DNA of 54,324 nt from Nocardioidaceae bacterium. GTDB lineage: Bacteria > Actinomycetota > Actinomycetes > Propionibacteriales > Nocardioidaceae. Under the pieces are notes generated by a model. The model did not search any database. It saw only the letters and a list, made by a program, of their open reading frames with translations, and was not told the DNA's origin. This document shows positions 3,253 to 24,309 of this stretch, piece after piece (within the stretch, counting starts at the first letter, position 1; every line of letters starts with the position of its first letter). A program made the position numbers and the translations under genes. The stretch lies in assembly GCA_033854915.1 (NCBI GenBank), contig JAWWPM010000053.1, positions 1-54,324 on the forward strand, written 5' to 3'.

Positions 3253-4554
3253 TCAGCCGGCGAGGTAGCCGAGCTCCACGAGGCGGTCGAGCTCGGCACG
3301 CAGCTCGGGGTGGGCGGCCTGGTCGGCGGCCCGGGCGCCGGCCAGGTAGGGATCCGCCACGTCGGTCTGACCGCCTTCGAAGACCACGGTCAGGCGGTTG
3401 GTCGCCTCGGCGTTCATCAGGGAGCCGAGCAGGGCGACCGGGTCGGTGCGGTCCTCGAGCGAGAGCATCCGGACGCCTTCGGGCAGTCGCGGCGCCTGCG
3501 CACTCGGAGAGCCGGCGGTCACGACCTGCTCGATCGTGAAGCGGGTCTCTGGCCGGCCAGCAGCGAGCTCCGCGGCCACCAGGCCACCGGGTCCGCTGCC
3601 CACCAGCATCACCCGTGCGTCGGGCTCGGTGATCACGCGGTCGAGGGTCTCGCGCACCTTCCGGGAGTACGACGAGAGGTCTCCGCCGACGAGCCGTAGC
3701 CGGGCCGATCGGCCACCGTCGGGGCCGGGCAGGTAGGCGATGTAGCGGTTGTCCGAGATCCGGTGGACACCGACCCCTCTGGCGGTGGCACCGAGGTTGG
3801 TGAGCAGGCCCGCCAGCCCCTGCGGCAGCGCGCCCGACAGCTCGGTCGGCGCCTCAGGCATGGCGCGCTCGGGCTGCACGAAGCCACCCGCGATGTCGCG
3901 GACGGCGGCCGCGGTGTCGTCCGGGAACGGCTCGATGCCCGCGCCCCGGAGGCCGCCGGCCGCGGCCAGCAGGCCGGTCTCGCCGCCGAGCACGCCGGCG
4001 GTCAGCATCGAGCGCAGCTGGAGGCTCTCCACGAGCCCTCCGCCGCCGGCCGTGATGTGGTCGAGGAGGTCGGGGTTGTTCTCGGCGAGGTCGCTGAGGT
4101 AGGACGCGACGCCGTCGCGCTCGACCGCGTCGGTCTCGATCAGGCCGGCGGAGACGATCGCCCCACCCAGGGCCACCTCGGGCGCGAGGTAGCCGATCGC
4201 GCGACCGGCGATCGAGCCGAGCGTGCGGTAGGCGGCGTTCTGGAGCTCGTCGATCCAGCGGTAGGTGAGCACCGTGGCGCGCACCACCAGCGCATCGGCA
4301 TCGAGCTCGATCGAGCGGGTGAGCACGCCGTGCCTGCCGCTGGTTGCCGCGCGGATGTCGTCGGCGGCCGTCGCGTACGTCGCCCGCGAGAGCGCCTCGG
4401 AGTCGGAGACGTCATCGTCGCCCAGCACCTCGACACCCAGCCGGGCCCGGGCCCGGAGATCCTCGGCGGTCGTCTCGAACAGGTCGGCGAGCCGCAGCAT
4501 CTCGTCGTAGCGGTCGGGGCTCACCGAGGCCTCGGTGCTCGTGCGGTCGCTCAT
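3253..4554 (-). CDS. Putative T7SS substrate: N-terminal helical domain (YRWID) + alpha/beta-hydrolase fold lacking catalytic Ser/His
   Basis: Paralog of 5974-7368 (shared ALxVRATV, YxxYLPG, QVVTAGxP, LSLE..D.V); VGSGPGG replaces AGHSQGG. Confidence 0.7.
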   Translation of the reverse strand: MSDRTSTEASVSPDRYDEMLRLADLFETTAEDLRARARLGVEVLGDDDVSDSEALSRATYATAADDIRAATSGRHGVLTRSIELDADALVVRATVLTYRWIDELQNAAYRTLGSIAGRAIGYLAPEVALGGAIVSAGLIETDAVERDGVASYLSDLAENNPDLLDHITAGGGGLVESLQLRSMLTAGVLGGETGLLAAAGGLRGAGIEPFPDDTAAAVRDIAGGFVQPERAMPEAPTELSGALPQGLAGLLTNLGATARGVGVHRISDNRYIAYLPGPDGGRSARLRLVGGDLSSYSRKVRETLDRVITEPDARVMLVGSGPGGLVAAELAAGRPETRFTIEQVVTAGSPSAQAPRLPEGVRMLSLEDRTDPVALLGSLMNAEATNRLTVVFEGGQTDVADPYLAGARAADQAAHPELRAELDRLVELGYLAG

Positions 4555-5480
4555 CCTGCGACCACCTCCGCCAGCACGAAGGCCAGGTCGCCGGCGAGAT
4601 CGGTCGGCTCGACCCGCCGTACCTCGACGCGGTGGTCGTCGCCCGTACGTCGCGGCCGAAACGCGCGCCACCCGTCGGCGAGCAGCACCCACGACACCAC
4701 CCCGACGACGGTGGTCTCGTGGCCCGACACGTCGGCTCCGAGCGCACGCAGTCGCCCGCGGGTGTCGATGATCAGGGCCGTGAGCATGGAGGTGAGCTCG
4801 ACGTCGCTGATCGGGCGCCCGTCGGCGTCGACCGACGAGCCGGAGTGCCGGGCCGCCAGCACGGGCAGCAGGTCGGACCTCGAGCTGCGGACGGCCTCGC
4901 TGGCGGCGTCGAGCAGCTCGAAGGGCACGTCGATCACGTCTGGCAGAGCGGTGCCGCGCAGGGACCGGTCGCTGGGCAGCATCGCCGTTCGGGCGAGCTC
5001 GTCGGCCCAGGAGGAGGCGGCGAACCACGCCAGCTCGAAGACCACTCCGTCGAGGGTGGCCAGCGTTGCCACCGCGCCGTCGGCCTCGCGGTGCCAGGCA
5101 TGGGCGTGGGCACCGTCGACCGCAACGTCGAGGTCGACGGCGACGCGGGGCGTGGCGAGCAGGCCGAGCGCCCCGGCCAGGCCGTCATCCAGGGCGTCAC
5201 CGGAGAGCAGGCCGCGCCGACGCAGCGTGTCAGCGGGATCGTTCAGCGCCGCCAGGGTCGTGGCGTACGCCTGGTCCTGGGCGGAGGTCCGGCTCACCCC
5301 GAGCCGCCATTCGAGCGCGCCGGTCTGGGCCGGTTCGCTGACCACGAAGGGCAGCGGCGCACCGCCGGCCCGCTCGGCGGCCAGCTGCAGCTCAGGCAAC
5401 GTCAGTGCCACGCGGCGGGGCAGGGCATCGAGGAGGTCCGCCGCGGGCGGCGGCGGGTTTCCGAGGTCGATGGTGGCCAT
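4551..5480 (-). CDS. EspG-like ESX chaperone (309 aa)
   Basis: N-terminal LTLPEL...PLPF, LRRRGLL, LGLLATP pattern and W..DGW near the C-terminus resemble EspG; lies between a WxG gene and a substrate gene. Confidence 0.55.
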   Translation of the reverse strand: MATIDLGNPPPPAADLLDALPRRVALTLPELQLAAERAGGAPLPFVVSEPAQTGALEWRLGVSRTSAQDQAYATTLAALNDPADTLRRRGLLSGDALDDGLAGALGLLATPRVAVDLDVAVDGAHAHAWHREADGAVATLATLDGVVFELAWFAASSWADELARTAMLPSDRSLRGTALPDVIDVPFELLDAASEAVRSSRSDLLPVLAARHSGSSVDADGRPISDVELTSMLTALIIDTRGRLRALGADVSGHETTVVGVVSWVLLADGWRAFRPRRTGDDHRVEVRRVEPTDLAGDLAFVLAEVVAG

Positions 5481-5482
5481 CG

Positions 5483-5917
5483 TCAGCGCCCTGGGAGCTC
5501 GAGGGTCAGCCAGTGCGCGTGACCGGTCGGCGGGGGCTCCACGGCGGCCAGCATCCGGTCGCGGTCCGTGACGGGGTCGTCCTCGGCGTGGCCGTCGTCC
5601 TCCGCCTCGAGCCGGGACCGGGCCTCGGCCAGGTCGTGGGAGAGCCGGCGCTCGGTCTCGCCGATCGACTCCTTGAGCAGGTCGACCTCGGCGAGGTGGC
5701 GTTCGAGCGAGTCGGCGGCGGTGTCGTGGGCGTAGGCCGCGGCGCGCAGGTGGTGGGCGCGCTCCTTGACCCGCTCGCGCATGGCGTCGGCGGCCCGGCC
5801 GCGCCACGCGATGGCCTCGCTGCGCGCGACCAGCTGGTCGGCGGTGGCCCGGATGTCGGCGCCCTGCTCGCGTAGCTGGCCCGCACGCTTGCGCATGACC
5901 AGGGTGTCGCCGTACAT
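5483..5917 (-). CDS. WXG100-like helical protein (144 aa)
   Basis: Helix-WRG-helix (AWRGRAADAM); RBS gaaggag upstream; paralog of 7979-8413. Confidence 0.75.
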   Translation of the reverse strand: MYGDTLVMRKRAGQLREQGADIRATADQLVARSEAIAWRGRAADAMRERVKERAHHLRAAAYAHDTAADSLERHLAEVDLLKESIGETERRLSHDLAEARSRLEAEDDGHAEDDPVTDRDRMLAAVEPPPTGHAHWLTLELPGR

Positions 5918-5945
5918 GCATGCTCCTTCGGGGGGTGTGGGGTCC

Positions 5946-5970
5946 CTACCCCAGGGTCAGTGTGCCAAAC
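5946..5970 (-). promoter_or_regulatory. SigF/SigB-type promoter candidate GTTT-N15-GGGTAG
   Basis: Minus strand gttt-ggcacactgaccctg-gggtag, 28 nt upstream of the ATG at 5917. Confidence 0.6.
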
Positions 5971-5973
5971 CCC

Positions 5974-7368
5974 TCAGCGGGTGATCTGGAAGACCTGGCT
6001 CGACGCCGTACCGCCGGAGCCGAGGAAGCCGTGCCCGCGCAGGCTGCCCAGCGCTGCCTGCAGCGACGGGTCGCTCGAGGCGTCGACGGCCGCGGCACCA
6101 CGCACGTAGTGGGCGAGGTCGTGGCTGCCGGCGAGGGAGGCCTCGTGGTCGTCGAACTGCACCGTCACCTGCTGCACCGAGTCGGGGTTGTCGACGCCGT
6201 CGAGCAGGGGTACGACGTCGCCGTGGTTCTCCAGCGAGAGCACGTGACTCCCCGGTGGGAAGCCGTGCACCTGCGCGGTCGGCGCGCCCGCAGTCACCAC
6301 CTGGGTCACGTGGAACGCCGACCCGTTGCCGAGCATCGCGGCCGCCTCCATCCCGCCCTGGCTGTGGCCGGCGAGGAGCACCGGGTCATCGGGCCCGATC
6401 CCGGCCCGGCGCATCGCCTCCTCGATCCCCTGCTGGTAGGTCGTGTCGTGGCCGGCGATCAGGTCGAGGTTGGTGGCGAGGTCGCGCACGTCGCCGTCCT
6501 GATCGAAGGGGGTCGTGGCGAGGTCGTCGGTGCCGGGCAGGTAGACGATGTAGCGGACCTTCCCGTCGGGACCGTGCAGGGTCTGCACCTCGATCGTGCC
6601 CTGGTCACCGGGTCGGTCCGCCGGAGAGAGGTCGCTGGTCTGCCGGAGGTGGCGGACCAGAGCGGCCAGGCTGTCCGGCGGCGTCGTGGCCAGGGGCACC
6701 GACAGGTCGCGACGCCGGTGCACCCGGGCGGGACCCTCGTCGCCGTACAGCGCCGCGAGCGTGGCCGCTGCAGCTCCGGTGGTCGGGTGGAACGCGGCCA
6801 GCCCCAGCACGCCGGCCGGCAGGAAGCCGGCGAGCAGACCGTCGAGCAGGCCGCCGCTCCCGCCGACGAGGTGCTGCACGGCCTCGGGGTGCCCGACGGC
6901 CTCACCCTCGAGCTCGGTGGCGAGTCCGGGGTCGAGGCGGAGCGCGAGCAGCCCGGCGAGCAGGAGGTACGGCGCGGACTCGGCGACCGTGTAGCCGAGC
7001 GCCCGGCCGGTGAGGTAGTCGAGCGTCGCGAAGGACCGGTCCACCAGGCGGTCGCACTCCTCGAACGCGTCGACGGTCGCGCGCACCAGCAGGGCGTCGG
7101 CCTCGTAGACGACCGACTCGACGAGGATGCCGTGGCTGCCCGTGGTGGCCGCGAGCACCTTCTCCTCGGCCGCGGCGAAGGTCACCGGCGAGAGCACCGC
7201 CGACTCCATCAGGTCGGGATCGGCGAGGGTGCGCCCGCCGGTCGCCGCCCAGCCGCGCATCCGGTCGCCGGCCGTGTCGAATCGGTCGGCGAGGGCGCGG
7301 ACGTGGGCATAGCTCGCCGCCAGGCCGCCCACGCCACCCGTGACCTTCGTGATCGGCGCCCTGCTCAT
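5974..7368 (-). CDS. Putative T7SS-secreted alpha/beta-hydrolase (lipase/esterase) with N-terminal helical domain (FEECD)
   Basis: Nucleophile elbow GHSQGG, Asp in ENHGDVVP, His in GSHDLAHY; no Sec signal peptide. Confidence 0.8.
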   Translation of the reverse strand: MSRAPITKVTGGVGGLAASYAHVRALADRFDTAGDRMRGWAATGGRTLADPDLMESAVLSPVTFAAAEEKVLAATTGSHGILVESVVYEADALLVRATVDAFEECDRLVDRSFATLDYLTGRALGYTVAESAPYLLLAGLLALRLDPGLATELEGEAVGHPEAVQHLVGGSGGLLDGLLAGFLPAGVLGLAAFHPTTGAAAATLAALYGDEGPARVHRRRDLSVPLATTPPDSLAALVRHLRQTSDLSPADRPGDQGTIEVQTLHGPDGKVRYIVYLPGTDDLATTPFDQDGDVRDLATNLDLIAGHDTTYQQGIEEAMRRAGIGPDDPVLLAGHSQGGMEAAAMLGNGSAFHVTQVVTAGAPTAQVHGFPPGSHVLSLENHGDVVPLLDGVDNPDSVQQVTVQFDDHEASLAGSHDLAHYVRGAAAVDASSDPSLQAALGSLRGHGFLGSGGTASSQVFQITR

Positions 7369-7982
7369 GCCCGCACCTCGACGGCCCAGCGGGCGACCAG
7401 CGCGGCCAGGTCCGCAGGTCGTCGGGACTCGACCCGGACCATGGCCCTCGGGCGACCGAGCGCGGACCGCCCAGCGTAGGGAGCGAGCTCGCGCCACCCG
7501 TCGCCGAAGAGCAGCCACGAGGCCAAGCCGACCCGCAAGCGGCCGCGCCGGCCGCCCGAGCCCACGGCCTGCAGGCGGGCCTGCACACCGTGGTGGAGGC
7601 GCCGCAGTTGCTGGTGGGTCGCGCCCAGGTCGAGCACCGTGCCGTCGGCCCGCACTGCCCCGGCGTCGCGCGCCACGAGCTCGTCGTACACCTCGGGCCG
7701 CCGGCCGGACAGCGCCGCTGCGGTGCCGACCAACAGGTCCCACGGCAGCTCGAGGAGGCACGCCGGCGCGGGCCGCACCCGGGCCGGGGCCGGCAGCCTC
7801 AGACGGCCCTCCAGCTCGCGCCGCCACTGGCCGACCTCGAGGCTCAGCACCTCGACCCGCCCGGTCCCGTGCACGACGACGCCCGCGACGCGCGACCCGC
7901 TCAGGGCGTACCCGACATGCACCCGCGCGCTCGCCGACGGGTCGGTGGTCGCCAGATCGAGGTCGACCCGGAGGGTGGTCAC
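7365..7982 (-). CDS. Shorter EspG-like paralog (205 aa)
   Basis: GTGA and ATGA overlaps on both sides; shares (V/A)SW(V/L)L..DGWR and VEVRRVEPTDLA/VRVESRRPADLA with 4551-5480. Confidence 0.55.
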   Translation of the reverse strand: MTTLRVDLDLATTDPSASARVHVGYALSGSRVAGVVVHGTGRVEVLSLEVGQWRRELEGRLRLPAPARVRPAPACLLELPWDLLVGTAAALSGRRPEVYDELVARDAGAVRADGTVLDLGATHQQLRRLHHGVQARLQAVGSGGRRGRLRVGLASWLLFGDGWRELAPYAGRSALGRPRAMVRVESRRPADLAALVARWAVEVRA

Positions 7983-8413
7983 GACGCACCCGGAACGTGG
8001 ACGTCGAGCCACTCCATGCTCCCGTGCGGCGGCGCGACGAAATGGCGCGCCCAGTGCTCCAGTGGGTCGGGTACGACGTGGGAGAGGGCGTGGGCGAGCC
8101 CGCCTAGGGCGTGCCCGGCACTGCGGAGCAAGGCACTGGCGCGACGCTCGATGTCCGCGATCAACTCCTCGATGCGGTCGACCTCGCGGGCGTGCCGCTC
8201 GAGGGCCTCGGCGGCATCCGCGTGCCGGACCGCGCACTGCCGCAGGTCACCGGCGTGGGCGTGGGCCAGGCCACGCATCGCATCGGCGGCCAGGCCCGAC
8301 CACGCGACGGACTCGGCGTGCGCGGCCAGGGACTCGGCCTCGGCCCGGATGTCCGCCCCCTGGTCGCGCAGCCGCCGGGCCAGGCCACGGATCACCGTCG
8401 TGTCGCCGTACAT
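7979..8413 (-). CDS. WXG100-like helical protein (144 aa)
   Basis: MYGDT start, AWSGLAADAM, RBS ggagg; paralog of 5483-5917. Confidence 0.75.
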   Translation of the reverse strand: MYGDTTVIRGLARRLRDQGADIRAEAESLAAHAESVAWSGLAADAMRGLAHAHAGDLRQCAVRHADAAEALERHAREVDRIEELIADIERRASALLRSAGHALGGLAHALSHVVPDPLEHWARHFVAPPHGSMEWLDVHVPGAS

Positions 8414-8539: not shown

Positions 8540-9373
8540 TCAGCCGGAAGGCCAGGAGAGCCCGCGGACCACCGTCTGGTTGTGGGTCAGGGCCCGGGTG
8601 TCGTGGCCGAACGCCCACGACCACACCACGGCGGTGCCGGAGACCGGCAGGTCGAACGCGGTGTACTCGGCGGTCATGTCGCCCCAGATGCCGGTGACCG
8701 CGCCGTCCTGGAAGGTGACCGGATGACAGGGCTGACCCGACGGCGAGGTCGCGCACCTGCCGGGGCCATGGCCGTGGTGCGGTCTCACGGCCACCCGGAC
8801 CTGCCAGGCAGGGCGCCCGTCGATCGTCGTACGACGCAGCGACGTGGCCCGCAGGTAAGGCCGGGCCGCCAGCCAGTGGATGAAGCCGCCGGGGGTGGCA
8901 GGGACGCCGGGCGCCGCGAGGGATGCGGGTGAGGCCGCCACCACACCCTCCAGCACGGAAACACCGGCGGATCCGCTGTGCGCATAGCTCTCGGCCAAGT
9001 GGACGGTCGCGCCGGCGCCGGAGTTCACGCCGTACCCACGCGGGATGTGCCAGGTGACCGGGGTCTGGAGGGCGAAGTCGTAGGTGCGGTGGCCGTCGCA
9101 GGTCACCATCGGATCGGAGCAGACGGGTTGCTGAAGACCCGGTGTCGGGCGGGGGGGCGCCGGGTCGGGCGTGGTGTCGTGGTGACCGAAGCCGGCGCCG
9201 CCCCACCAGGCCGCCGCGGCAACCGCGGCGACGACGAGTGCGGCCGTCGCGCGCGAGCGGCGCTGCCGCCGCGTGTGCGCGACGTGCAAAGCGCCCAGGC
9301 CCGCGTCGACATCGGCCGCGGTGTGGGAGCGGAGGTCCTCGGACGCGGCCCGGGCGAGGTCGTGGATGCTCAT
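8540..9373 (-). CDS. Single-TM membrane protein, probable anti-sigma factor
   Basis: Overlaps the sigma stop; short cytoplasmic N-terminus, RRQRRSR + TM helix, Pro-rich linker, extracytoplasmic domain with Cys pairs. Confidence 0.65.
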   Translation of the reverse strand: MSIHDLARAASEDLRSHTAADVDAGLGALHVAHTRRQRRSRATAALVVAAVAAAAWWGGAGFGHHDTTPDPAPPRPTPGLQQPVCSDPMVTCDGHRTYDFALQTPVTWHIPRGYGVNSGAGATVHLAESYAHSGSAGVSVLEGVVAASPASLAAPGVPATPGGFIHWLAARPYLRATSLRRTTIDGRPAWQVRVAVRPHHGHGPGRCATSPSGQPCHPVTFQDGAVTGIWGDMTAEYTAFDLPVSGTAVVWSWAFGHDTRALTHNQTVVRGLSWPSG

Positions 9374-9951
9374 GCGGGCTCCTCCGTGTCGGCCAGGCGA
9401 GCTGCGAGCGCGGCGCGGGCCCGGGAGAGATGGGTCTTCACGCTCCCTTCGGCACAGCCCAGGGTCGTCGCGATCTCGGCCACCGGCAGGTCGAGCGCGT
9501 AGTAGAGGACGGTGGCCTGCGCCTGGCGGCGCGGGAGTCGACGCACCTCGGCCCAGTAGCGCTCGGTGTCCGGGTCCAGGTCGTCGAGCCGCGCCACCGG
9601 CCGTACGGCGTACCGCTGCACGGCACGACCCTCGGCCAGCAGCCGCCGGGTCGTTGACCGTCCCTTGTGCAGGCAGATCCCACGGACGTAACCGGCCGGG
9701 CTGTCCAGCACCGCGATCTGGGACCAGCGCCGGTAGGCCACCAGCATCGACTCCTGGGCGATGTCCTCGGCGGCCGCCGATCCGGAGAGCGCCCGCGCCA
9801 GCACCAGGAGGCGCGGGTACTCGCGGCGGTAGAAGGCCTCGAACGGCTCCGCCGACGGGACGGGCTCGGTGGCGGGCGCGACCACGACGCCCGGCGGTTC
9901 GTCGACGAGGTCGAGCACGGCCGGTGCTCGCCTCCGGAAGGTCTTGGCCAT
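9370..9951 (-). CDS. ECF RNA polymerase sigma factor
   Basis: Region 2 AEDIAQE..LVAYRRW; region 4 LPRRQ...EIATTLGCAEGSVKTHLSRAR; start uncertain. Confidence 0.9.
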   Translation of the reverse strand: MAKTFRRRAPAVLDLVDEPPGVVVAPATEPVPSAEPFEAFYRREYPRLLVLARALSGSAAAEDIAQESMLVAYRRWSQIAVLDSPAGYVRGICLHKGRSTTRRLLAEGRAVQRYAVRPVARLDDLDPDTERYWAEVRRLPRRQAQATVLYYALDLPVAEIATTLGCAEGSVKTHLSRARAALAARLADTEEPA

Positions 9952-14170: not shown

Positions 14171-14761
14171 TCAGCGCAGCCGCACCGACGCCAGCACCGA
14201 CGCGACCAGCCGCTCCCGCTCCAGGCGGGGTACGGCGGTCTTGAAGCCGAGCTGGACCAGCCGGCCGCCGACGGGGTGTCCGTAGACCTCGTACCAGCGG
14301 CCTTGACCGGCCGGGCCGAGCAGGTGGAAGAACGGCGTCCCGTCGATGGTGACGTTTCCGCCGATTCTCGGGGAGCCGGTCCAGTCGTCGTTGCGGGCGA
14401 CGATCCGCTCGGCGCGGCCCAGCGAAGTGCCTGGGTAGATCGAGGTGTCGCTGTAGCTGAGCTCGTTGACGAAGTGCCGGTCGGAGGCGAACACGATCTC
14501 CTTGCCGAAGCTGTGGTCGAGCCGCCAACCGGCCGGGGCCCGGGCGGTGAACCGGGCCAGCCCGACCTTCGGTCCCGTCGCCGCGGGAGCAGAAGGCGCC
14601 GTCGGGGACGGCGAACCCGAGGTCGCGGAGGGCGAGCCGGGGGGAGTCGACGGCGGCTCGGCGGTGCCCGATGGGGAGCCGCCGCAGCCGGAGCCGACGA
14701 GCGCGAGCGCGGCGACCACGCCCGCCCACGTCGTACGACGTGCGGGGGACGAGAGCGTCAC
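14171..14761 (-). CDS. Probable lipoprotein, possibly PsbP/LpqN-like fold, translationally coupled to eccC
   Basis: GTGA overlap with the eccC stop; signal ending LVGSG-C, Ser/Pro linker, APAGW, C-terminal VASVLASVRLR. Confidence 0.65.
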   Translation of the reverse strand: MTLSSPARRTTWAGVVAALALVGSGCGGSPSGTAEPPSTPPGSPSATSGSPSPTAPSAPAATGPKVGLARFTARAPAGWRLDHSFGKEIVFASDRHFVNELSYSDTSIYPGTSLGRAERIVARNDDWTGSPRIGGNVTIDGTPFFHLLGPAGQGRWYEVYGHPVGGRLVQLGFKTAVPRLERERLVASVLASVRLR

Positions 14762-17700
14762 AGGCTGGGCTCCCGCCACGCCAGCTGGACCACCTCGACC
14801 CCGCGGTCGCGGGTCACCAGCCGCCCGCGCCCCGCCGGCGCGGGCATCGGGCGGACGTTGCCGATCAGGTTGCCCTCGTCGGGGCTGCCGGAGAGCACGA
14901 GTCCGGGCATGGCGAGGTCGCGCAGGGCCTGGATCACGGGCTCGTAGAGCGCCCGCGACGCCCCGCCCGACCGACGTGCGACCGCGAGGTGGAGCCCCAC
15001 GTCGCGCGCCTGCGCGAGCAGCGGCTGGAGCACCTGGACCGGCGAGCTCTGCTGGGTGGCCACCAGGTCGTAGTCGTCGACGACGATGAAGACCTCGGCA
15101 CCGGTCCACCACGACCTGTTGCGCAGCTGGTCGGGGGTCACGTCGGGTCCGGGGATGCGGTTCTCGAGGTACGACGCGAGGTCGGCCAGCGTGGGCGTGG
15201 CCTGCGCCGCCGAGGTCAGGTAGTTGAGCAGGTAGTCGTCGGGGACCTCGCCGAGCAGTGAGCGGCGGTAGTCGACGACGACGATCTGCGCCTCCTTCGA
15301 GGTGCGGGTGCGCATCACCTCGTGGACGTAGGCGCGCAGCGCGGCGCTCTTGCCGGACTGACCGTCGCCGAAGATCAGCCAGTGCGGCTCGGCGTCGGCG
15401 TCGAGCCCGATCGGCGCGAGCTCCTTCTCGTTGACGCCGAGCAGCAGCCGCCGACCGGCCAGCGCCTCCTCACCGGACTGGCCGAGGAGGTCGGGCACGG
15501 TGAGCTTCTCGGGCAGGAGCCGCAGCTTGGGACCGGTCGGCCCGCGCCACGCCTCGGTGACCCGGGCGACGAGGTCCTCCACGCCGTCGCCAAGGGAGGT
15601 GACGTCGGGCTCGCCGTCCACCCGCGGCAGGGCCGCCAGGAAGTGCAGCTTGCCCGGCACCAGGCCCCGCCCCGGCCGGCCCGGTGGCACCAAGATGGCC
15701 AGCTTGCGGTCGATCTCGGAGTCCATCGGGTCACCGAGCTTGAGCTCGAGCCGGGTCCCGAACAGGTCGCGGATCGCCGCGCGGTAGTCGGCCCAGCGCG
15801 ACGACGCGGTGACCACGTGGAAGCCGAAGGTGAGGCCACGCGACGCGAGCTGCTGGAGGTCGAGCTCGAGGTCGTCGAAGTCGGCGCGAAGCGTGCTCCA
15901 GCCGTCGACCACGAGGAACACGTCGCCGTACCCGTCGTCGGCGCGGCCCTGGGCCCGGCGGCTGCGGTAGGTCTCGATCGAGTCGATCCCGTTGGCGCGG
16001 AAGTAGGCCTCACGTCGGTCGACGATGCCGGTCACCTCCGCGAGGATCCGGCGTACGACGTCGGGCTCGGACCGCGTGCCGAGCCCGGCCAGGTGCGGCA
16101 GCGACCCCAGCCCCGCGAACGTGCCGCCCCCGAAGTCGAGCACGAAGAACTGTGACTCCAGCGGCGTCGTCGTCAGCGACAGGCTGGCCACCAGAGTGCG
16201 CAGCAGGGTGCTCTTGCCGGTCCGCGGGCCGCCGACCACCGCGACGTGGCCGCTGGCTCCGGACAGGTTGACGGTCAGGGTGTCGCGGCGCTGCTCGCGC
16301 GGCCGGTCGACGGTGCCGAGCGGCACCGTCAGCCCGCCGAGGGCCCGCCACTGGTGCGAGACCAGGCCCAGCTCGGGGTCGTCGGACAGGTCGGCCATCA
16401 GCTCGTCGAGGGTGTCGGGCACGTCGAGCGGTGGCAGCCACACCTGGTGGGCGGCCGGGCCGGTACCGTCCATCCGCCCGACCGCGACGTCGAGCAGCGT
16501 CTCCTGCTCACCGGTCGACGCGGGCCGCGGCTCCGGTCCGGTGTCGACGACGACGTCGGCCTCGGGCTGCTCGGGCAGCCGCACCTCGGTGATGGTCCAG
16601 GGCAGGATCCCCTGCACGACGCCGGCGTCGTCGCGCACCACCGACCGGGTGCGCCCGGCCGGCGGCCCCGACACGTAGGCACCCTTGAAGCGCAGCAGCG
16701 TCGACTGGTCGGGCTTGAGGAAGCCCAGACCGGGCATGGGCGGAAGCTCGTAGGCATCGGGTACGCCGAGCACCGTGCGGGACTCCTGGGCGGAGAAGGT
16801 CCGCAGGCCGACGCGGTAGGACAGGTGCGACTCGAGACCGCGCAGGCGGCCCTCCTCGAGCCGCTGCGAGGCGAGCAGCAGGTGCAGTCCGAGCGACCGC
16901 CCGAGCCGGCCGATGGCGACGAAGAGGTCGATGAACTCCGGCTTGGCCGACAGCATCTCGGAGAACTCGTCGACCACGATGAACAGCGACGGCAGCGGCG
17001 CGAGGTCCTCGCCCGCGGCCCGGGCGCGCTCGTAGTCGCGCACCGACGCGTAGTTGCCGGCGTCGCGGAGCAGCTCCTGGCGGCGCACCATCTCGCCGGA
17101 CAGGGCGTCCTGCATGCGGTCGACCAGGGTGAGCTCGTTGGCCAGGTTGGTGATCACGGCTGAGACATGGGGCATCGCGGACATCCCGGCGAAGGTCGCG
17201 CCGCCCTTGAAGTCGACCAGCACCATGTTCAGCTGCTCGGGTGAGTGGGTCAGCGCCAGGCCGAGCACCAGGGTGCGCAGGAACTCCGACTTGCCCGAGC
17301 CGGTCGCGCCGATGACCAGTCCGTGCGGGCCCATGCCCTGCTGGGCGGACTCCTTGATGTCGAGGTGGATCATCCCCCCGCCGTCACCCAGCCCGATCGG
17401 GACCCGCAGCCGGTCGCGGGCCGGGCGCTGCCGCCAGGCCGACGAGGGGTCGTAGCGGCGGACGTCGCCCAGGCCGAGCAGGTCCATGAAGTCCGACGGG
17501 CCCTTGATCTCGCCGGCCCCTGCCGGCTCGGCCTCGACGCCCGCGGTGACGACGTGCAGCGGGGCCAGGCGACGGGCCAGGGCCTCGGCCGTAGCCAGGT
17601 CGCACTGGTCTGCCGCAGCCCGGACCGGCGCCGCGCGCAACCGCAGCGCAGTGACCGGGAGCCGGCCGTCGGCGAGCTCGGCGCGGTCCTCGAAGAGCAG

Positions 17701-18777
17701 GCGCAGCCGGGAGCTGTCCTCGAGCTCGTCCCACCGGCTCGGCAGGTCGAGCACGGTGACGCCGTGCAGTCCGTCGGGCGGGATCACGTGGTTGCCGGGA
17801 GGGAGGACGCCGCCGTCGACCACGAAGAGGATGTGCGGGTTGGGAGGCCGCTCGTCGGCGCCGAAGCGCGGCCGCTCGGCGAGGTCGGGCGGCAGCAGGG
17901 CAGCCAGGTCGGTGAGGTTGGTCGAGACCATCCGCCGGGGTCCGACCGCGTCGGAGCCGTGCGCCGAGAGCGCGTGCGGCAGCCACTTCACCCAGTCCCA
18001 CTGGGCCAGCGTGTGCTCGGAGGCGAGCACCGCGATGGCGAGGTTCTCCGGCGACTGGAACGCCGCGGCCGAGCAGATCATCGCCCGGGCCAGCGATCGC
18101 GCCTCGTCCTCGTCGCCGCACAGCTCGATGCGGTCGAAGGCGCGCAGGTCGACCGAGGCCGGAAGGTTCGGCTGCACCCGGTGTACGGCGAGCAGACGGT
18201 GCAGCGCGGACGCGGCGGCCGGGTCGACCTGCTCGATGGGGGCCGAGTCGGGTGGCACGAGCTCGAGCGACAGCGGCTGGCTGCACACGCCGTACCGCAC
18301 CTGGAGGAACTGCGCGTCCGCGGCGCCGTTCTCCCACACCCGCGACCTCTCGTCGGCGAGGGCCGGCAGGGCGGAGGGGTCGGGGTGCAGCCAGAGCAGC
18401 GCGGCCCGCTGCTGGGCGGCGGCGTCGCGAGCGATCTTGCGCACCGTCCCGAGGTAGCGGAGGTACTCGGTGCGGGTGCCCGTGACCGTCTGCGCGCGCT
18501 GCTTCCGCTGCCGGTCGAGCTGCACGACGATGAAGCCGAGCGTGGCGAACAGGAACATCCCGGCCGCCAGGAAGCTGCGCCCCTGCCCACCGGGCACTGA
18601 GCTGCCCATGGTGGCCACCAGCACGATCGAGCCGAGGCTGCCCAGCATCGGGATGGCGTTCATCAGGACGCCGCTGGCGCCCTCCGCCTCCTCGATCTCG
18701 GGGGGTGCCTGGAGCACGATCTCACCGGTGGGCAGCTCGGGCTGCTCGGCCCGGCTGCCACGCAGGGTGGTGCTCAA
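14758..18777 (-). CDS. eccC: Type VII secretion FtsK/SpoIIIE ATPase EccC (EccCa+EccCb fused)
   Basis: Two N-terminal TMs; three Walker A motifs GATGSGKS, GGPRTGKS, GDGQSGKS; LDIKESAQQGMGPHG; HQVWLPPL; TTG start with ggag RBS. Confidence 0.95.
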   Translation of the reverse strand: MSTTLRGSRAEQPELPTGEIVLQAPPEIEEAEGASGVLMNAIPMLGSLGSIVLVATMGSSVPGGQGRSFLAAGMFLFATLGFIVVQLDRQRKQRAQTVTGTRTEYLRYLGTVRKIARDAAAQQRAALLWLHPDPSALPALADERSRVWENGAADAQFLQVRYGVCSQPLSLELVPPDSAPIEQVDPAAASALHRLLAVHRVQPNLPASVDLRAFDRIELCGDEDEARSLARAMICSAAAFQSPENLAIAVLASEHTLAQWDWVKWLPHALSAHGSDAVGPRRMVSTNLTDLAALLPPDLAERPRFGADERPPNPHILFVVDGGVLPPGNHVIPPDGLHGVTVLDLPSRWDELEDSSRLRLLFEDRAELADGRLPVTALRLRAAPVRAAADQCDLATAEALARRLAPLHVVTAGVEAEPAGAGEIKGPSDFMDLLGLGDVRRYDPSSAWRQRPARDRLRVPIGLGDGGGMIHLDIKESAQQGMGPHGLVIGATGSGKSEFLRTLVLGLALTHSPEQLNMVLVDFKGGATFAGMSAMPHVSAVITNLANELTLVDRMQDALSGEMVRRQELLRDAGNYASVRDYERARAAGEDLAPLPSLFIVVDEFSEMLSAKPEFIDLFVAIGRLGRSLGLHLLLASQRLEEGRLRGLESHLSYRVGLRTFSAQESRTVLGVPDAYELPPMPGLGFLKPDQSTLLRFKGAYVSGPPAGRTRSVVRDDAGVVQGILPWTITEVRLPEQPEADVVVDTGPEPRPASTGEQETLLDVAVGRMDGTGPAAHQVWLPPLDVPDTLDELMADLSDDPELGLVSHQWRALGGLTVPLGTVDRPREQRRDTLTVNLSGASGHVAVVGGPRTGKSTLLRTLVASLSLTTTPLESQFFVLDFGGGTFAGLGSLPHLAGLGTRSEPDVVRRILAEVTGIVDRREAYFRANGIDSIETYRSRRAQGRADDGYGDVFLVVDGWSTLRADFDDLELDLQQLASRGLTFGFHVVTASSRWADYRAAIRDLFGTRLELKLGDPMDSEIDRKLAILVPPGRPGRGLVPGKLHFLAALPRVDGEPDVTSLGDGVEDLVARVTEAWRGPTGPKLRLLPEKLTVPDLLGQSGEEALAGRRLLLGVNEKELAPIGLDADAEPHWLIFGDGQSGKSAALRAYVHEVMRTRTSKEAQIVVVDYRRSLLGEVPDDYLLNYLTSAAQATPTLADLASYLENRIPGPDVTPDQLRNRSWWTGAEVFIVVDDYDLVATQQSSPVQVLQPLLAQARDVGLHLAVARRSGGASRALYEPVIQALRDLAMPGLVLSGSPDEGNLIGNVRPMPAPAGRGRLVTRDRGVEVVQLAWREPSL

Positions 18778-18833
18778 CGCGTCTCCCAAGAACGATCGTG
18801 CAAGCTGTTGCGGCGATGATAGGCGGGCCTCTC

Positions 18834-18848: not shown

Positions 18849-18901
18849 TGCCGGGATCGGGGCGCAATCGGGGCGTGGCCGGGTACGACGAGGGGACCGC
18901 G

Positions 18902-20278
18902 ATGACGCAGGGACGCGTGCGGATGTCGGCCGACGTCCTGGCCGTCACCGTGCACGGGCCCGTGGGTGCCTTGGACCTGATGGTCCCGTCGGGCTCGGCG
19001 GTGACCGAGGTCGCGCGTGAGTACGCCGCCCAGGCCGGGCTCGCGTCGATCCCGCTGCTCTACACCCGCACCGGAGACCTGCTCCTCGCCTCGGCCACGC
19101 TCGCGGAGGCCGGGGTGCAGACGGGCAGCATCCTGGTGGCGACCACGGGCGTCTCCCGGCCGGCGCGAGCCACCCGTGCCGCACTGGCCGGCCGGAAGCC
19201 GCGGGCAGCCGGTGGCATCGGGCTGGAGCTGTGGTGCAGCCTCGCTGCCGCCACGGCCGTGCTGTCCGGGTGGTGCGCCGCGCACGTGAACGGTCGGGCC
19301 CACGTCGTGGCGGTCGCCGCGCTGTCCGCCACCGCCCTCCTCGGCCTGGTGCCCGCCGACCGCAGGTCCGGTCGCCAGGCGGTGCCCCGGGTGCTCGCCG
19401 CGCCGTGCTTCGCGGGTGCCGCGGGGTTCGCGTGGGCCTGGGACCCCGAGCCTGCCCGGCTGCCGATGGTGCTCGGGGTCGCCGCCGCGGCGACCGCCGC
19501 AGGCGCGGCCCTGGCCCGGGCCGGCGCCGCCCGGGCCGAGGCGCAGCTCCAGGTGGTCGTGATCGCCGGAGCCGTGGTCTTCGTGGTCACCGGTGCCCTG
19601 ACGCTGCTCGGCTGGGCGCCGCGAGCCGACTGGGCGATCCTGCTGGCGCTGGCCCTGTTGGGTGCGCGCTTCGTGCCCGGCCTGGCCGTCGACGTACCCG
19701 ACCAGTACCTCGTCGACTTCGAACGCCTGGCCGTCACGGCGTGGTCGGCGCGCGACCGTGGCCCACGACGCCGGGTCCGGTCGATCGTCCCGATCGTCGC
19801 GGTCGCCGACCTCGCCGACCGGGGCGCCCGGATGGTGGCCGCCTCGTGCGCCGCGATCCTGGTCGTCGCCGCCACGACCGCACCACTGCTGCTCTGGACC
19901 GCCGTGCTCCCGGTCGATCGGGTCGGTGCGCGGCTCGAGGTGCTCCTCGTCGGGGCCGGCCTGCTGCTGGCGGCGCGCAGCTACCGCCAGACCGCGGCCC
20001 GCATCCTGCTCCGCGCGGCGGGGATCGCCTGCTGGCTGAGCCTCGCGGTGTACCTCGCGCCGCGGCTCTCGTCCGGACAGCTGCTTGCCGTGTCGCTGGG
20101 CTCCGTCGCGCTCGGGCTGCTGGTCGTCCTCGCGGCGATGGCGACCGGTCGCGGGTGGAGATCGGCCTGGTGGTCGCGGCGCGCGGAGGTGGCCGAGGCC
20201 CTGTGCGGATCCTCCGCCCTGGCCGTGGTGCTGGTGGCCAGTGGGTTCTTCCGGCACCTGTGGGAATTGACGTCGTGA
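18902..20278 (+). CDS. Divergent EccD-like protein (YukD ubiquitin-like N-terminus + multiple TMs)
   Basis: LAVTVHGPVGALDLMVP...TLAEAGVQTGSIL; many hydrophobic helices; LLLAARSYR and RRAEVAE as in EccD C-termini. Confidence 0.75.
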   Translation: MTQGRVRMSADVLAVTVHGPVGALDLMVPSGSAVTEVAREYAAQAGLASIPLLYTRTGDLLLASATLAEAGVQTGSILVATTGVSRPARATRAALAGRKPRAAGGIGLELWCSLAAATAVLSGWCAAHVNGRAHVVAVAALSATALLGLVPADRRSGRQAVPRVLAAPCFAGAAGFAWAWDPEPARLPMVLGVAAAATAAGAALARAGAARAEAQLQVVVIAGAVVFVVTGALTLLGWAPRADWAILLALALLGARFVPGLAVDVPDQYLVDFERLAVTAWSARDRGPRRRVRSIVPIVAVADLADRGARMVAASCAAILVVAATTAPLLLWTAVLPVDRVGARLEVLLVGAGLLLAARSYRQTAARILLRAAGIACWLSLAVYLAPRLSSGQLLAVSLGSVALGLLVVLAAMATGRGWRSAWWSRRAEVAEALCGSSALAVVLVASGFFRHLWELTS

Positions 20279-20279
20279 T

Positions 20280-20304
20280 GTTTAGCACGGGGGGGTGCGG
20301 GTAG
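20280..20304 (+). promoter_or_regulatory. SigF/SigB-type promoter candidate GTTT-N15-GGGTAG upstream of the esx pair
   Basis: gttt-agcacgggggggtgc-gggtag, 100 nt before the esx ATG. Confidence 0.6.
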
Positions 20305-20403
20305 ACCTGCTCTGTCCGGCTCGGGCCGATCACCCGGAGGGCACCAACCGCACCATCAGCTCACGAGCGGCCGACCGGCCGCGATGAGAAAGGAGACGGC
20401 GAG

Positions 20404-20721
20404 ATGTCGTCCGCAAACGAAATGGGTCAGGGCCAGGGGACACTCTCGGCCGCCGCCGGGATGGTCACAGACGCCAAGCACGACTTCGACCGCCTCAACA
20501 CCGAGCTCGTCCAGCACATCGACGCCGCGAAGGCCAAGTGGTCCGGCCAGGGCGGTACGGCGTTCAACTCGCTGGGCCACGCGTGGTCGGAGAAGCAGCG
20601 CACCATCACCAACGCGCTCAACCAGTTCGAGGCCTCCCTGCGCTCGACCGAGAAGGACAACACCGGCACCGACGACACGCAGTCGTCCGCGTTCACCCGC
20701 AACCAGCAGCGCCTCGGCTGA
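20404..20721 (+). CDS. WXG100 family protein (EsxB/CFP-10-like)
   Basis: 105 aa, central WSG, strong RBS aaggag. Confidence 0.92.
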   Translation: MSSANEMGQGQGTLSAAAGMVTDAKHDFDRLNTELVQHIDAAKAKWSGQGGTAFNSLGHAWSEKQRTITNALNQFEASLRSTEKDNTGTDDTQSSAFTRNQQRLG

Positions 20722-20747
20722 GCGCGCCCGGACGACAGGAGAAGACG

Positions 20748-21044
20748 ATGGAACTCGACGGACTCAAGGTCAACCACGCCGGCCTCGACCAGGCCGCGGA
20801 CGACCTCATGGGCATCGTGAACAAGATCGACGCCCGCATGCAGAACCTCGAGCGTGAGCTCAACCCGCTTCGCGCGAACTGGGTCGGTGATGCCCAGCAG
20901 GCCTACACCGTGGCCAAGGCGCGCTGGGACGGCGCCATCAACGAGATGCGCGACCTCCTGCACAGCACCTCGCAGCAGGTCACGCAGTCGAACGCCGAGT
21001 ACCGCGCCGCCGACGCGCGCGGCGCGCGTTCGTTCGACATCTGA
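20748..21044 (+). CDS. WXG100 family protein (EsxA/ESAT-6-like)
   Basis: 98 aa, WVGDAQQAY, C-terminal YRAAD (YxxxD). Confidence 0.92.
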   Translation: MELDGLKVNHAGLDQAADDLMGIVNKIDARMQNLERELNPLRANWVGDAQQAYTVAKARWDGAINEMRDLLHSTSQQVTQSNAEYRAADARGARSFDI

Positions 21045-21137
21045 CCAGCCCTCGATGTCGGGGATCCAGCGGGGAGCGTGACCGGAGCGGTCGCGTTCCC
21101 CGCTGAGCCGGTGTCGGGGCACTTTTCGGGAGGAACG

Positions 21138-21593
21138 ATGGGCCTTTTCTCGCTCGACCAGATCGCGAACCTGGGGGTGGAGCTCAAGGAGCTCTACGTC
21201 GACGTGGAGCTGATCCACGACATCACCGCCGACCTCACCCACAACGAGGACGCCGTGCACGACTCCGGCTTCCAGAAGTACCACGTGAACCAGGCGGTGT
21301 TCGGTGAGTCGTCGCTGGGTGGCTCCCTCGGCTACCACCACAGCCTGGCCCACGCCAAGGTCTCCGACACCCTCGCCGCGGTGCTCCAGGACCTGCACAC
21401 CTTCCGGCTCGGGCTGCAGACGTTCGCCAAGTCGGTCGACACCGCCGACACCCAGAGCGCCGGCGACCTCGCCCGGCGGCACCAGGCGGTCGAGGAGCTC
21501 TCGCGGGCCGCCGGCTTCGAGCACACCCACCAGCGCAACGACTACTACCACCAGGGCCAGAGCCCGGCTGCGTCGGGAGGGACCCATGCCTAA
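21138..21593 (+). CDS. Small helical T7SS-associated protein (EspC/PE-like partner)
   Basis: 151 aa; helix-FG-helix pattern, VDTAD at the secretion-motif position; overlaps the next gene. Confidence 0.55.
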   Translation: MGLFSLDQIANLGVELKELYVDVELIHDITADLTHNEDAVHDSGFQKYHVNQAVFGESSLGGSLGYHHSLAHAKVSDTLAAVLQDLHTFRLGLQTFAKSVDTADTQSAGDLARRHQAVEELSRAAGFEHTHQRNDYYHQGQSPAASGGTHA

Positions 21594-22839
21594 GGGACCT
21601 CACGAGCTGCGCCTCGACACCTACGTCGCCAACGGCAACGCCGAGAACATCTCGTACTCCGCCCACATGTGGGAGCGGGGCCACACCGTCCTCAACAACC
21701 TCGCGGACGCACTCGAGAGCGCCAAGCCCCATCTGCTGAGCCGGTTCGGCCCGCAGACCGGTCCGGCCGCCGTGGCCGCCTTCGAAACGGTGGCCAAGAA
21801 CGTCCGGGCGCAGGCCGCGGAGATGAAGAAGGCGAGCGGCGCGCTGACCTCGGCCGGCAACGCGCTCGAGGACGCCCAGCACACGCACCGCGCCCTCGGC
21901 AACGCGCCCGCCTCGCCCCCGGCCGACCCGACCCGGAAGACCGGGGAGTCCGCCACCGACTTCCACACCCGCCAGCACTCCGCCAGCCAGGCGCAGTCGG
22001 GCTACGCCGCCGAGTACTCGGCGCGCGAGCGCCAGTCGCAGACCGCGATCACGACCGTGGACACCCACTACACGCAGGCGATCAAGGTGATGGAGAGCAT
22101 CCACGGCCAGCCCCCGTCGCAGACCGGCGGCGGCGGCGCCGGCGGTGGCGGCTCGATCCCGCACGGCTCGATCCCGGCCGGCGGTCACCACACCGCCACC
22201 CCGACCGTCACCGCCGTCGGCTGGGAGACCGGCTCGGGGCACCACCACACCCATGTCGACCCTCCGGTGGTCATCCCGACCGAGACGACGACCGACCCGG
22301 GGAGCGGCGGGGGTCCCGGCGGCGGTCCCGGCGACGGCAGCCCCTGGCCGCCGGACGGGCACCCGGGCCTGCCCCAGGGGCCCGGCGAGTACCCGCCGGG
22401 CGGCTACCCCCCCGGCGGAGGTCCGCCCGGCACCTACCCGCCCGGCGGTGGTCCGGGCGTCCCGCCCGGCGGCGTGCTGCCACCCGGCGCGCCCACCGGC
22501 CCCTCGTCGACGATGGTCGGCGGTCTGATGACCGGCGGACTGGTCGGCGGTGCCTCGGGGCTGAGCAACGCCCTGCGCGGCTCGGTGACGACCGCGGCGC
22601 TGACCGAGGAGGAGCTCCTCGCCTCGCGCAGCGGCGGCACCGGTGCCGGAGCGGCCGGTGCACGCGGCGCCGCGGCCGGGGCGACGGGCACCTCGCGTGG
22701 CAGCGGCGGTCGCGGCACCGGTGCCGGCGGTCGTGGCGACCGCGGCCGCAAGAAGAAGCGCAAGCCCGGCGTGGACGACTTCTATGACAACGACGACTGG
22801 CTCGACGAGGACGAAGCATCGCCGCCGGTCCTGCACTGA
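21586..22839 (+). CDS. EspB/PPE-like T7SS substrate with Pro/Gly-rich tail
   Basis: ~170-aa helical N-terminus, PPGG repeats, basic-then-acidic C-terminus ...DDWLDEDEASPPVLH. Confidence 0.65.
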   Translation: MPKGPHELRLDTYVANGNAENISYSAHMWERGHTVLNNLADALESAKPHLLSRFGPQTGPAAVAAFETVAKNVRAQAAEMKKASGALTSAGNALEDAQHTHRALGNAPASPPADPTRKTGESATDFHTRQHSASQAQSGYAAEYSARERQSQTAITTVDTHYTQAIKVMESIHGQPPSQTGGGGAGGGGSIPHGSIPAGGHHTATPTVTAVGWETGSGHHHTHVDPPVVIPTETTTDPGSGGGPGGGPGDGSPWPPDGHPGLPQGPGEYPPGGYPPGGGPPGTYPPGGGPGVPPGGVLPPGAPTGPSSTMVGGLMTGGLVGGASGLSNALRGSVTTAALTEEELLASRSGGTGAGAAGARGAAAGATGTSRGSGGRGTGAGGRGDRGRKKKRKPGVDDFYDNDDWLDEDEASPPVLH

Positions 22840-22847
22840 CCCCCAGG

Positions 22848-22910
22848 TCGGAGTCGCCCCGGCCGACTCCGAGGCCGCCCGGCCCGGGTCTCGCGACCCG
22901 GGCCGGGCGG
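22848..22910 (+). terminator. Two tandem GC-rich hairpins between substrate genes and eccD
   Basis: tcggagtcg/cgactccga (22848-22872) and 16-bp ccgcccggcccgggtc/gacccgggccgggcgg (22875-22910). Confidence 0.65.
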
Positions 22911-22951
22911 TACCATCTCAGCCGACTGATGACGATTTTCGGGGGTCATGC

Positions 22952-24304: not shown

Positions 24305-24309
24305 TCTCC

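Follow-up and report, generated by a model that had tools for sequence, protein, structure and literature searches.

Does an actinomycete outside the mycobacteria send enzymes through a type VII secretion system (T7SS) with the help of dedicated, EspG-like chaperones? The question is raised by two tandem three-gene cassettes at positions 3253 to 8413 of a 54,324-nucleotide stretch of a soil-dwelling Nocardioidaceae bacterium of the genus Nocardioides (GenBank assembly GCA_033854915.1, contig JAWWPM010000053.1; the whole stretch is hereafter the window), each encoding a small WxG protein (W), an EspG-family protein (E), and a protein with a helical N-terminal domain and an alpha/beta-hydrolase fold (H). 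A sequence-only reading had taken them for an undescribed counterpart of the mycobacterial PE-PPE-EspG system, with carrier, chaperone, and enzyme cargo in each cassette. We find that the cassettes are real and conserved but are a variant of known T7SS effector cassettes, and that their unusual part is a conserved, chaperoned pseudo-hydrolase. The explanation that we favor, with somewhat more confidence than doubt, is that both are paralogous ESX-4-type substrate cassettes descended from a four-gene toxin module, and that the cargo of one of them, H1, is non-catalytic.

Two paralogous cassettes, one with a pseudo-hydrolase

All six open reading frames lie on the reverse (-) strand. Cassette 2 comprises W2 (7979-8413, 144 aa, MYGDT start, W38-S-G), E2 (7365-7982, 205 aa, GTG start), and H2 (5974-7368, 464 aa), and is separated by 56 nt from cassette 1, made up of W1 (5483-5917, also 144 aa with an MYGDT start, W38-R-G), E1 (4551-5480, 309 aa, full length), and H1 (3253-4554, 433 aa, with a linker at 103-225). 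Genes overlap by 4 bp at W2/E2, E2/H2, and E1/H1 and are 2 nt apart at W1/E1; the tightly coupled order of WxG protein, EspG-like protein, and hydrolase that had been read twice from the sequence is borne out, and it was found again in the related loci fetched for comparison. GC content at third codon positions is 0.90-0.96 in the four of the six frames measured. Pairwise alignment of H1 with H2 (33% identity, E 1e-46), E1 with E2 (30%, E 3e-10), and W1 with W2 (46%, E 1e-28) marks the cassettes as paralogous W-E-H units. H1, H2, and E2 receive no name from Pfam or NCBIfam, close named homologues come only from Nocardioides, and one E1 homologue is already called EspG in NCBI annotation. Identity to the G140 orthologues rises from 47-49% for E2 through 64% for W2, 67-68% for H2, 70% for W1, and 77% for E1 to 81% for H1, with E2 diverging faster than its neighbor genes. 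In two genomes, cassette 1 is damaged—in G238 (L043/L016) H1 is frameshifted, and in G070 (L048/L007) W1 was not found and H1 is short at its N-terminus.

We compared 97 H proteins from the window and the fetched loci (35 H1 and 62 H2-type), after excluding an H1 with a frameshift and six loci that were incomplete or cut. In a tree built by a quick method without the linker, H1 forms a single clade of 35, and the remaining 62 are H2-type. H2 has a catalytic triad, S336-D384-H416, with a GHSQGG nucleophile motif, and the Ser of GHSxG, the Asp, and the His are kept in 62 of 62 H2 proteins, which makes H2 a candidate lipase/esterase effector that is likely exported. Its PGT and GHSQG recall the G[ST] and GHSxG motifs of the WXG-exported polymorphic toxin domain Tox-ABhydrolase3 (PMC3482391). 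H1, on the other hand, reads GSGPGG where H2 has GHSQGG, with G321 in place of the nucleophile and no aligned catalytic His. The nucleophile Ser is absent in all 155 H1 proteins inspected (the 35 at loci and 120 best homologues), which have Ala or Gly instead; some His occurs in the C-terminal loop of 54 of the 120 homologues and 5 of the 35 locus proteins, again with the nucleophile absent. Ser320 was considered as a shifted nucleophile and rejected because it is not conserved (S, G, A, R, H, C, and others occur at this site). By its sequence, H1 is a pseudo-hydrolase that has lost its catalytic residues, and the enzyme cargo proposed earlier for both cassettes is not supported for cassette 1.

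The predicted structure of H1 combines a helical hairpin (13-110), a low-confidence linker, and a retained alpha/beta-hydrolase fold (Z 10.5, root-mean-square deviation (rmsd) 3.9, 156 residues aligned); a Foldseek search with full-length H1 gave no match at E<=0.001, and a profile search of H against the sequences of solved structures returned only weak lipase rows. Conservation in H1 peaks outside the hydrolase domain. Segment 103-160 has a constant length of 58 aa across all 35 proteins, and the hydrophobic, Gly-rich stretch 103-171 is the best conserved part (column identity 0.84 vs 0.65 in the hydrolase domain), which is why we think that H1 likely works without catalysis. A full-length E gene adjoins H1 in 35 of 35 cases.

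The N-terminal domain is uniform across the family, residues 16-102 spanning 84-87 aa in all 97 proteins. As had been noted from the sequence, it ends in YRWID in H1 (98-102) and FEECD in H2 (102-106), and the hydrolases lack signal peptides, as judged from sequence and hydropathy profile rather than by a dedicated predictor. YRWID is kept in 120 of 120 best H1 homologues, helix 80-104 being rich in near-invariant residues; all 97 H proteins preserve the acidic residue of YxxxD/E, which in 62 of 62 H2 is the final D. With WxG on W and YxxxD/E on H, the two proteins carry in their sequences the composite export signal of T7SSa substrates, in which these motifs sit on two chains (PMC13444075).

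The chaperone and the chain it is predicted to grip

Both window W proteins carry WxG and match PF21725 below its cut-off (W1 at E 2.5e-5, W2 at E 2e-4). W38 is invariant across 55 W proteins, 41 of which match T7SS_signal, in agreement with the earlier description of W as WXG-like; 14 of the 55 weakly match PPE families (best E 4e-4), and a profile search against the sequences of solved structures returned only weak coiled-coil/EsxA rows. E1 matches the EspG family PF14011 at E 2.4e-4 (21.2 bits, cut-off 27) and is the sole match to it in the source assembly, which is 85.6% complete; E2 has no PF14011 match, and 26 of 55 E-family members match at E<=0.05, the best at 7e-10. The structural comparison is clearer. 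The predicted E1 model (predicted local distance difference test score, pLDDT, 84) finds EspG3 (4w4i) in Foldseek at E 2.5e-13 and superposes on EspG3 (4w4j) with Z 18.9 and an rmsd of 4.0 over 248 residues, followed by EspG1 (Z 16.9) and EspG5 (Z 15.8), and then by an unrelated row at Z 5.3. In its predicted structure, E1 has the EspG fold, which sustains the label that it had been given from sequence. The picture of two equal, intact cassettes is not supported, as E2 lacks some 105 N-terminal residues and covers only positions 112-313 of the E profile; it belongs to a lineage that is losing its chaperone.

To ask which chain the chaperone would hold, we modeled W1, H1(1-230), and E1 as three chains, with E1 as the scored chain and three controls. 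The complex scored 0.83 vs 0.01 for the best control, a score that 116 of 157 solved complexes attained, as did 2 of 215 mismatched pairs, counts that hold only roughly here given a cargo cut at 230, three chains, and custom alignments. Runs agreed in at least 83% of contacts, with partner pLDDT of at least 81. In the model, E1 contacts H1 at 82-130 and 172-225 and W1 at residue 41 only, and when an unrelated chain replaces H1, the score for E1 and W1 falls to 0.00. The chaperone is therefore predicted to sit on the YxxxD-bearing cargo and not on the WxG protein, and its grip to lie at the signal end of the bundle, because the modeled E1 site flanks YxxxD and the WxG loop.

The sequence of H2 loci offers a partial cross-check. 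By automatic labels, the chaperone gene is full at 29 of 62 loci, truncated at 8, and missing at 25 (at L072 it is probably truncated). The H2 linker (103-243) is shorter than 100 aa in 11 of the 25 cases without a chaperone gene and in none of the 37 with one, through five changes on the tree. This association fits the E1-H1 model and is suggestive.

These results bear directly on the reading from which the question arose, that the cassettes are true PE-PPE-EspG analogues in which W plays the part of PPE, meeting the chaperone at the tip of the bundle, and each cargo is a working enzyme. There are likenesses: as in the mycobacterial ESX-1/3/5 systems, an EspG-fold chaperone accompanies a pair whose WxG and YxxxD/E lie on separate chains, and W weakly matches PPE in the minority of proteins given above. 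PE-hydrolases, moreover, combine YxxxD with a C-terminal enzyme fold, and H does the same. There are also differences. The chaperone gene here lies inside each cassette rather than in the ESX locus. No PE or PPE family matches W1, W2, H1, or H2, and none is matched over its cut-off in the incomplete source assembly; the nucleophile is missing throughout H1. To our knowledge, the host also has no mycomembrane, unlike mycobacteria. EspG engages the PE-PPE bundle at its tip (PMC11217815), whereas modeled E1 lies on the YxxxD chain near the signal motifs; because it does so, and scores 0.00 without that chain, the PE-PPE-EspG geometry is unsupported, and we regard the analogy as quite improbable.

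Another parallel is found in the EsxBCD-EsaE-EsaD-EsaG system (T7SSb) of Staphylococcus aureus, where the cassette-encoded chaperone EsaE, of predicted EspG fold, binds EsaD's LXG targeting domain and its central part (PMC10765036), much as E1 contacts H1 in our model. The comparison is one of description, not of sequence homology, and the systems differ in several respects: here the host is of T7SSa type, there is one partner and not three, the cargo is a hydrolase and not a nuclease, and immunity would come from a lipoprotein or be lacking.

Linkage to the ESX-4-like machine and a shared promoter-like motif

The machine proposed to serve both cassettes had been placed about 6 kb away, and it is. 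The eccC gene, for the T7SSa ATPase (14758-18789, -), is the only EccCa match at E<=1e-50 in the source assembly, and its end at 14758 lies 6.3 kb from the start of W2, the cassettes being downstream of the ESX-4-like locus. The rest of that locus (18875-26987, +) holds an eccD-like gene, a WXG100 gene pair (esx pair, 20422-21044, +), two unnamed genes, eccD, eccB, and mycP; no eccE, eccA, or espG match was found among its scanned proteins. In a synteny survey of 150 Nocardioides genomes, E1 was matched in 104, 96 of them at orthologue level (about two thirds of the genus), and in none of the 112 genomes sampled from other genera of the family, while the H family was matched in 125 and EccCa in 146. 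E1 and eccC share a contig in 72 of the 96 genomes, the other 24 being uninformative, and in 70 of these 72, the E1 cassette shares the strand of eccC and follows it downstream at a distance of no more than 50 kb (median 11.4 kb).

A promoter-like motif connects cassette 1 with this locus. Aligned upstream regions gave GTTT-N14-17-GGGWA, matching the SigF consensus GTTT-N14-19-GGGTA (PMC4694148). The window has two copies of GTTT-N15-GGGTA, one upstream of W1 and cassette 1 (5947-5970, -) and one upstream of the esx pair (20280-20303, +), vs 0.22 expected; 2 of 100 shuffles reach two. Upstream of cassette 1, the motif occurs in 31 of 34 loci (of the remaining three, two read GGGCA and the third runs into a contig end), a count that is partly circular, 22 of these regions having yielded the motif. 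The esx matches, which recur in L036 and L070, are not circular.

A reading in which the cassettes are unconnected with type VII secretion, and encode cytoplasmic proteins that lie near eccC through conserved gene order alone, seems to us very improbable indeed. Housekeeping-like genes between cassettes and eccC (antiporter, HerA-like, LytR-C) are syntenic as well, and many cassette-2 copies are far from eccC. The EspG fold, the WxG, the invariant D of YxxxD, the T7SS_signal matches of W, and the motif shared with the esx pair nevertheless agree with one another, and the occurrence of cassettes in genomes without a T7SS, which the sequence-only reading had named as counter-evidence, was not seen, as none of the four genus genomes lacking an EccCa match has an E or H match.

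Several observations on the surrounding genes stand apart from this argument. A GTTT-N14-17-GGGCA variant of the motif precedes many cassette-2 W genes (L008, L039, L045, L054, L059, L060, L064-L068, L070, L072, L074, L075, and others). The window's own W2 has only a degenerate copy, GTTT-N17-GGGCC, and a SigM-type reading of its upstream region was dropped. Directly upstream of cassette 2 lie genes for an extracytoplasmic function (ECF) sigma factor (9370-9918, -) and a putative membrane-anchored anti-sigma factor (8540-9373, -), present also in L036 and probably an unrelated insertion, because most relatives lack them. In the ESX locus, there are two EccD-type genes (18875-20278, + and 22991-24304, +), one of which has diverged (Pfam EccD E 8e-8) and points away from eccC. 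The two unnamed genes that follow the esx pair (21138-21593, +, 151 aa, and 21586-22839, +, 417 aa) have no Pfam or NCBIfam match and likely form a further substrate pair; the Atlas neighbors (0.96) of the 417-aa protein are WXG100/PPE-like clusters of Actinomycetota.

Ancestry and likely roles of the two cassettes

A fourth gene points to where the cassettes came from. Among the loci compared, a lipoprotein gene, in most cases in overlap with H or immediately next to it, comes after 13 of 29 H2 genes with a full chaperone, none of 8 with a truncated one, 1 of 25 without one (a weak case), and none of 35 H1 genes. A scan with a distant H alignment extended this beyond Nocardioides. Among the best 80 of 492 relatives, the order W, a gene for 245-283 aa, and H, mostly with a lipoprotein gene, recurs in Aeromicrobium, Cellulomonas, Actinotalea, Cellulosimicrobium, Oryzobacter, and Ornithinibacter; the 19 middle proteins match the E profile (probability 96.9) and none matches Pfam, the 17 lipoproteins match those of Nocardioides (probability 97.4), and loci of Kineococcus, Janibacter, Pedococcus, and Demequina are mostly W-H only. 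An earlier E-profile scan of 400 phylum genomes turned up one real outside locus (G647) and three weak matches (E ~1e-4 to 8e-4), near which local profiles picked up no cassette gene; it gives no range, since it lacks the sensitivity needed for the divergent chaperones just described. Because relatives carry the fourth, lipoprotein gene, the ancestor was likely a lipase toxin-immunity module of the kind of EatA, TslA, or EsaD/EsaE, and not a PE-PPE pair.

Such modules are in print, and to call the system undescribed was an overstatement. The TapA1/TapA2-EatA-EatI locus of Mycobacterium abscessus and related Actinomycetota loci encode an ESX-4 substrate with a helical N-terminus, a partner upstream, and a lipoprotein immunity protein downstream (PMC13444075), with alpha/beta hydrolases as one of the most frequent payload types (PMC13444075, PMC13491425). 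EsaE is a known chaperone of EspG fold that is encoded within its cassette (PMC10765036). By description, not by homology, the cassettes resemble these loci and the operon Mab_0251-0253 in their small partner gene, helical-domain substrate, and, in relatives, lipoprotein gene; in the text consulted, no EspG gene is named for those loci, and here there is a single partner together with a chaperone and a dead paralogue. In S. aureus, TslA, of the TslA-TilA-TlaA1/2 system, is a T7SS-exported Ser-Asp-His lipase with lipoprotein immunity (PMC10730906), with a reversed domain order, and H1 differs from it in being catalytically dead. In a literature search that covered few subscription journals, neither the dead paralogue nor, for these genera, a W-EspG-hydrolase cassette was the subject of any paper listed.

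In the explanation that we favor, the ancestor comprised a WxG partner, a chaperone, a lipase-type toxin, and an immunity lipoprotein, a four-gene set that is still intact in other actinomycetes. Both cassettes would feed the nearby ESX-4-like machine: W and the YxxxD-bearing helical hairpin of H would pair into the export-signal bundle, E would clamp the cargo and shield its hydrophobic linker, as the complex model predicts, and, on the precedent of PE-PPE, LXG-Lap, and EsaE, E may then hand the W-H complex over to EccC. Cassette 2 likely supplies an exported lipase or esterase, toxic or nutritional, whose dependence on the chaperone is relaxing. Cassette 1 encodes the catalytically dead copy, which about two thirds of the genus retains along with a full chaperone; H1 is likely a non-catalytic, exported helper that binds membranes or lipids and may be co-expressed with the Esx pair through a stress sigma factor of SigF type.

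The clade of the window H2 has 40 members, with the chaperone truncated or lost in 31, and none of the 40 has an adjacent lipoprotein gene, nor does the window have one beside the toxin-like H2 or elsewhere. This lends some weight to the idea that H2 is here a nutritional or envelope-remodeling esterase, exported by the T7SS but no longer an antibacterial toxin, and the conservation of its hydrolase domain despite the loss of chaperone and linker (column identity 0.66 vs 0.63) points the same way. The deeper branches of the family and its outside relatives, however, sit in operons of toxin-immunity type, and an immunity gene could be unlinked or on an unassembled contig. We hold the esterase role to be a tentative alternative, short of an even chance, and it is compatible with the export steps of our explanation.

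Another reading makes cassette 1 a regulator or decoy and not an effector, which gates EccC, is needed for the secretion of other substrates, or neutralizes H2-type lipases as a substitute for the absent lipoprotein. Cassette 1 is mostly single-copy, adjoins the ESX locus, and has its motif in common with the esx pair, helix 80-104 of H1 has many near-invariant residues, and the 40 H2 without a lipoprotein are ESX-adjacent. Yet many loci have H1 without an adjacent H2, or H2 without H1, and about a third of the genus sample has EccC with no E1 orthologue found, from which it follows that cassette 1 is not a core part. On balance, we judge such a role unlikely.

Several results weigh against the substrate-cassette explanation itself, beyond the rough calibration and partly circular count already given. 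EccC is near-universal in the genus, and its co-occurrence with the cassettes therefore says little; and the first residue of YxxxD is Y/F in just 29 of 62 H2. Likeness to solved EspG complexes may raise the complex score, and the association of linker loss with chaperone loss is not significant in an independent-pairs test (4-5 pairs, p 1). The lack of any lipoprotein beside the 40 H2 weakens a toxin role in that clade, and none of this lipoprotein family was found in the 85.6%-complete source assembly. Finally, among the outside genomes drawn from the best 80 relatives, EccCa is over its cut-off in just 18 of 50, with some match in 50 of 50; the ATPases under the cut-off are EssC-like, and in 4 of the 5 cases inspected a WXG100 gene lies no more than ~3 kb away.

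The wider interest of the cassettes lies in their chaperones. According to one published evolutionary model, ESX systems gained espG, pe, and ppe within the mycolic-acid lineage (PMC4791881). If each ESX-4 substrate in Nocardioides, Aeromicrobium, Cellulomonas, and relatives has an EspG-fold chaperone of its own, this would widen the range of dedicated chaperones and bridge EspG and EsaE in one tractable, non-pathogenic host, and the natural series of full, truncated, and lost chaperones with shortened linkers could reveal why a substrate comes to need a chaperone. A toxin paralogue that is dead yet conserved beside the machine is likewise a candidate for a non-catalytic T7SS function. More speculatively, and with doubt predominating, monoderm actinomycetes might run their own class of chaperoned ESX-4 substrates, clamped at the signal end of the bundle, from which Nocardioides domesticated one lipase toxin into a conserved, dead, stress-induced secreted protein with a membrane-inserting linker, which would serve the secretion system as a toxin-derived accessory for delivery or lipid binding.

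A few loci among the relatives are of interest in themselves. FtsK ATPases of ~1450-1550 aa in L205-L211 (Aeromicrobium, Janibacter, Kineococcus, and others) match Firmicute EssC from the N-terminus but fall below both the EccC and the EssC cut-offs, and possibly represent a T7SS variant. In G647, from another family, the order W-E-H-lipoprotein is found at L120:5907-8912 with W and E broken and the hydrolase and lipoprotein intact. A domain duplication is present in some of the candidate immunity lipoproteins (245-279 aa vs ~150 aa; L066:8431-9252, L067:4054-4893, L059, L061), and in L199, from the mycolic-acid-containing genus Segniliparus, the gene order is E-W-H instead of W-E-H.

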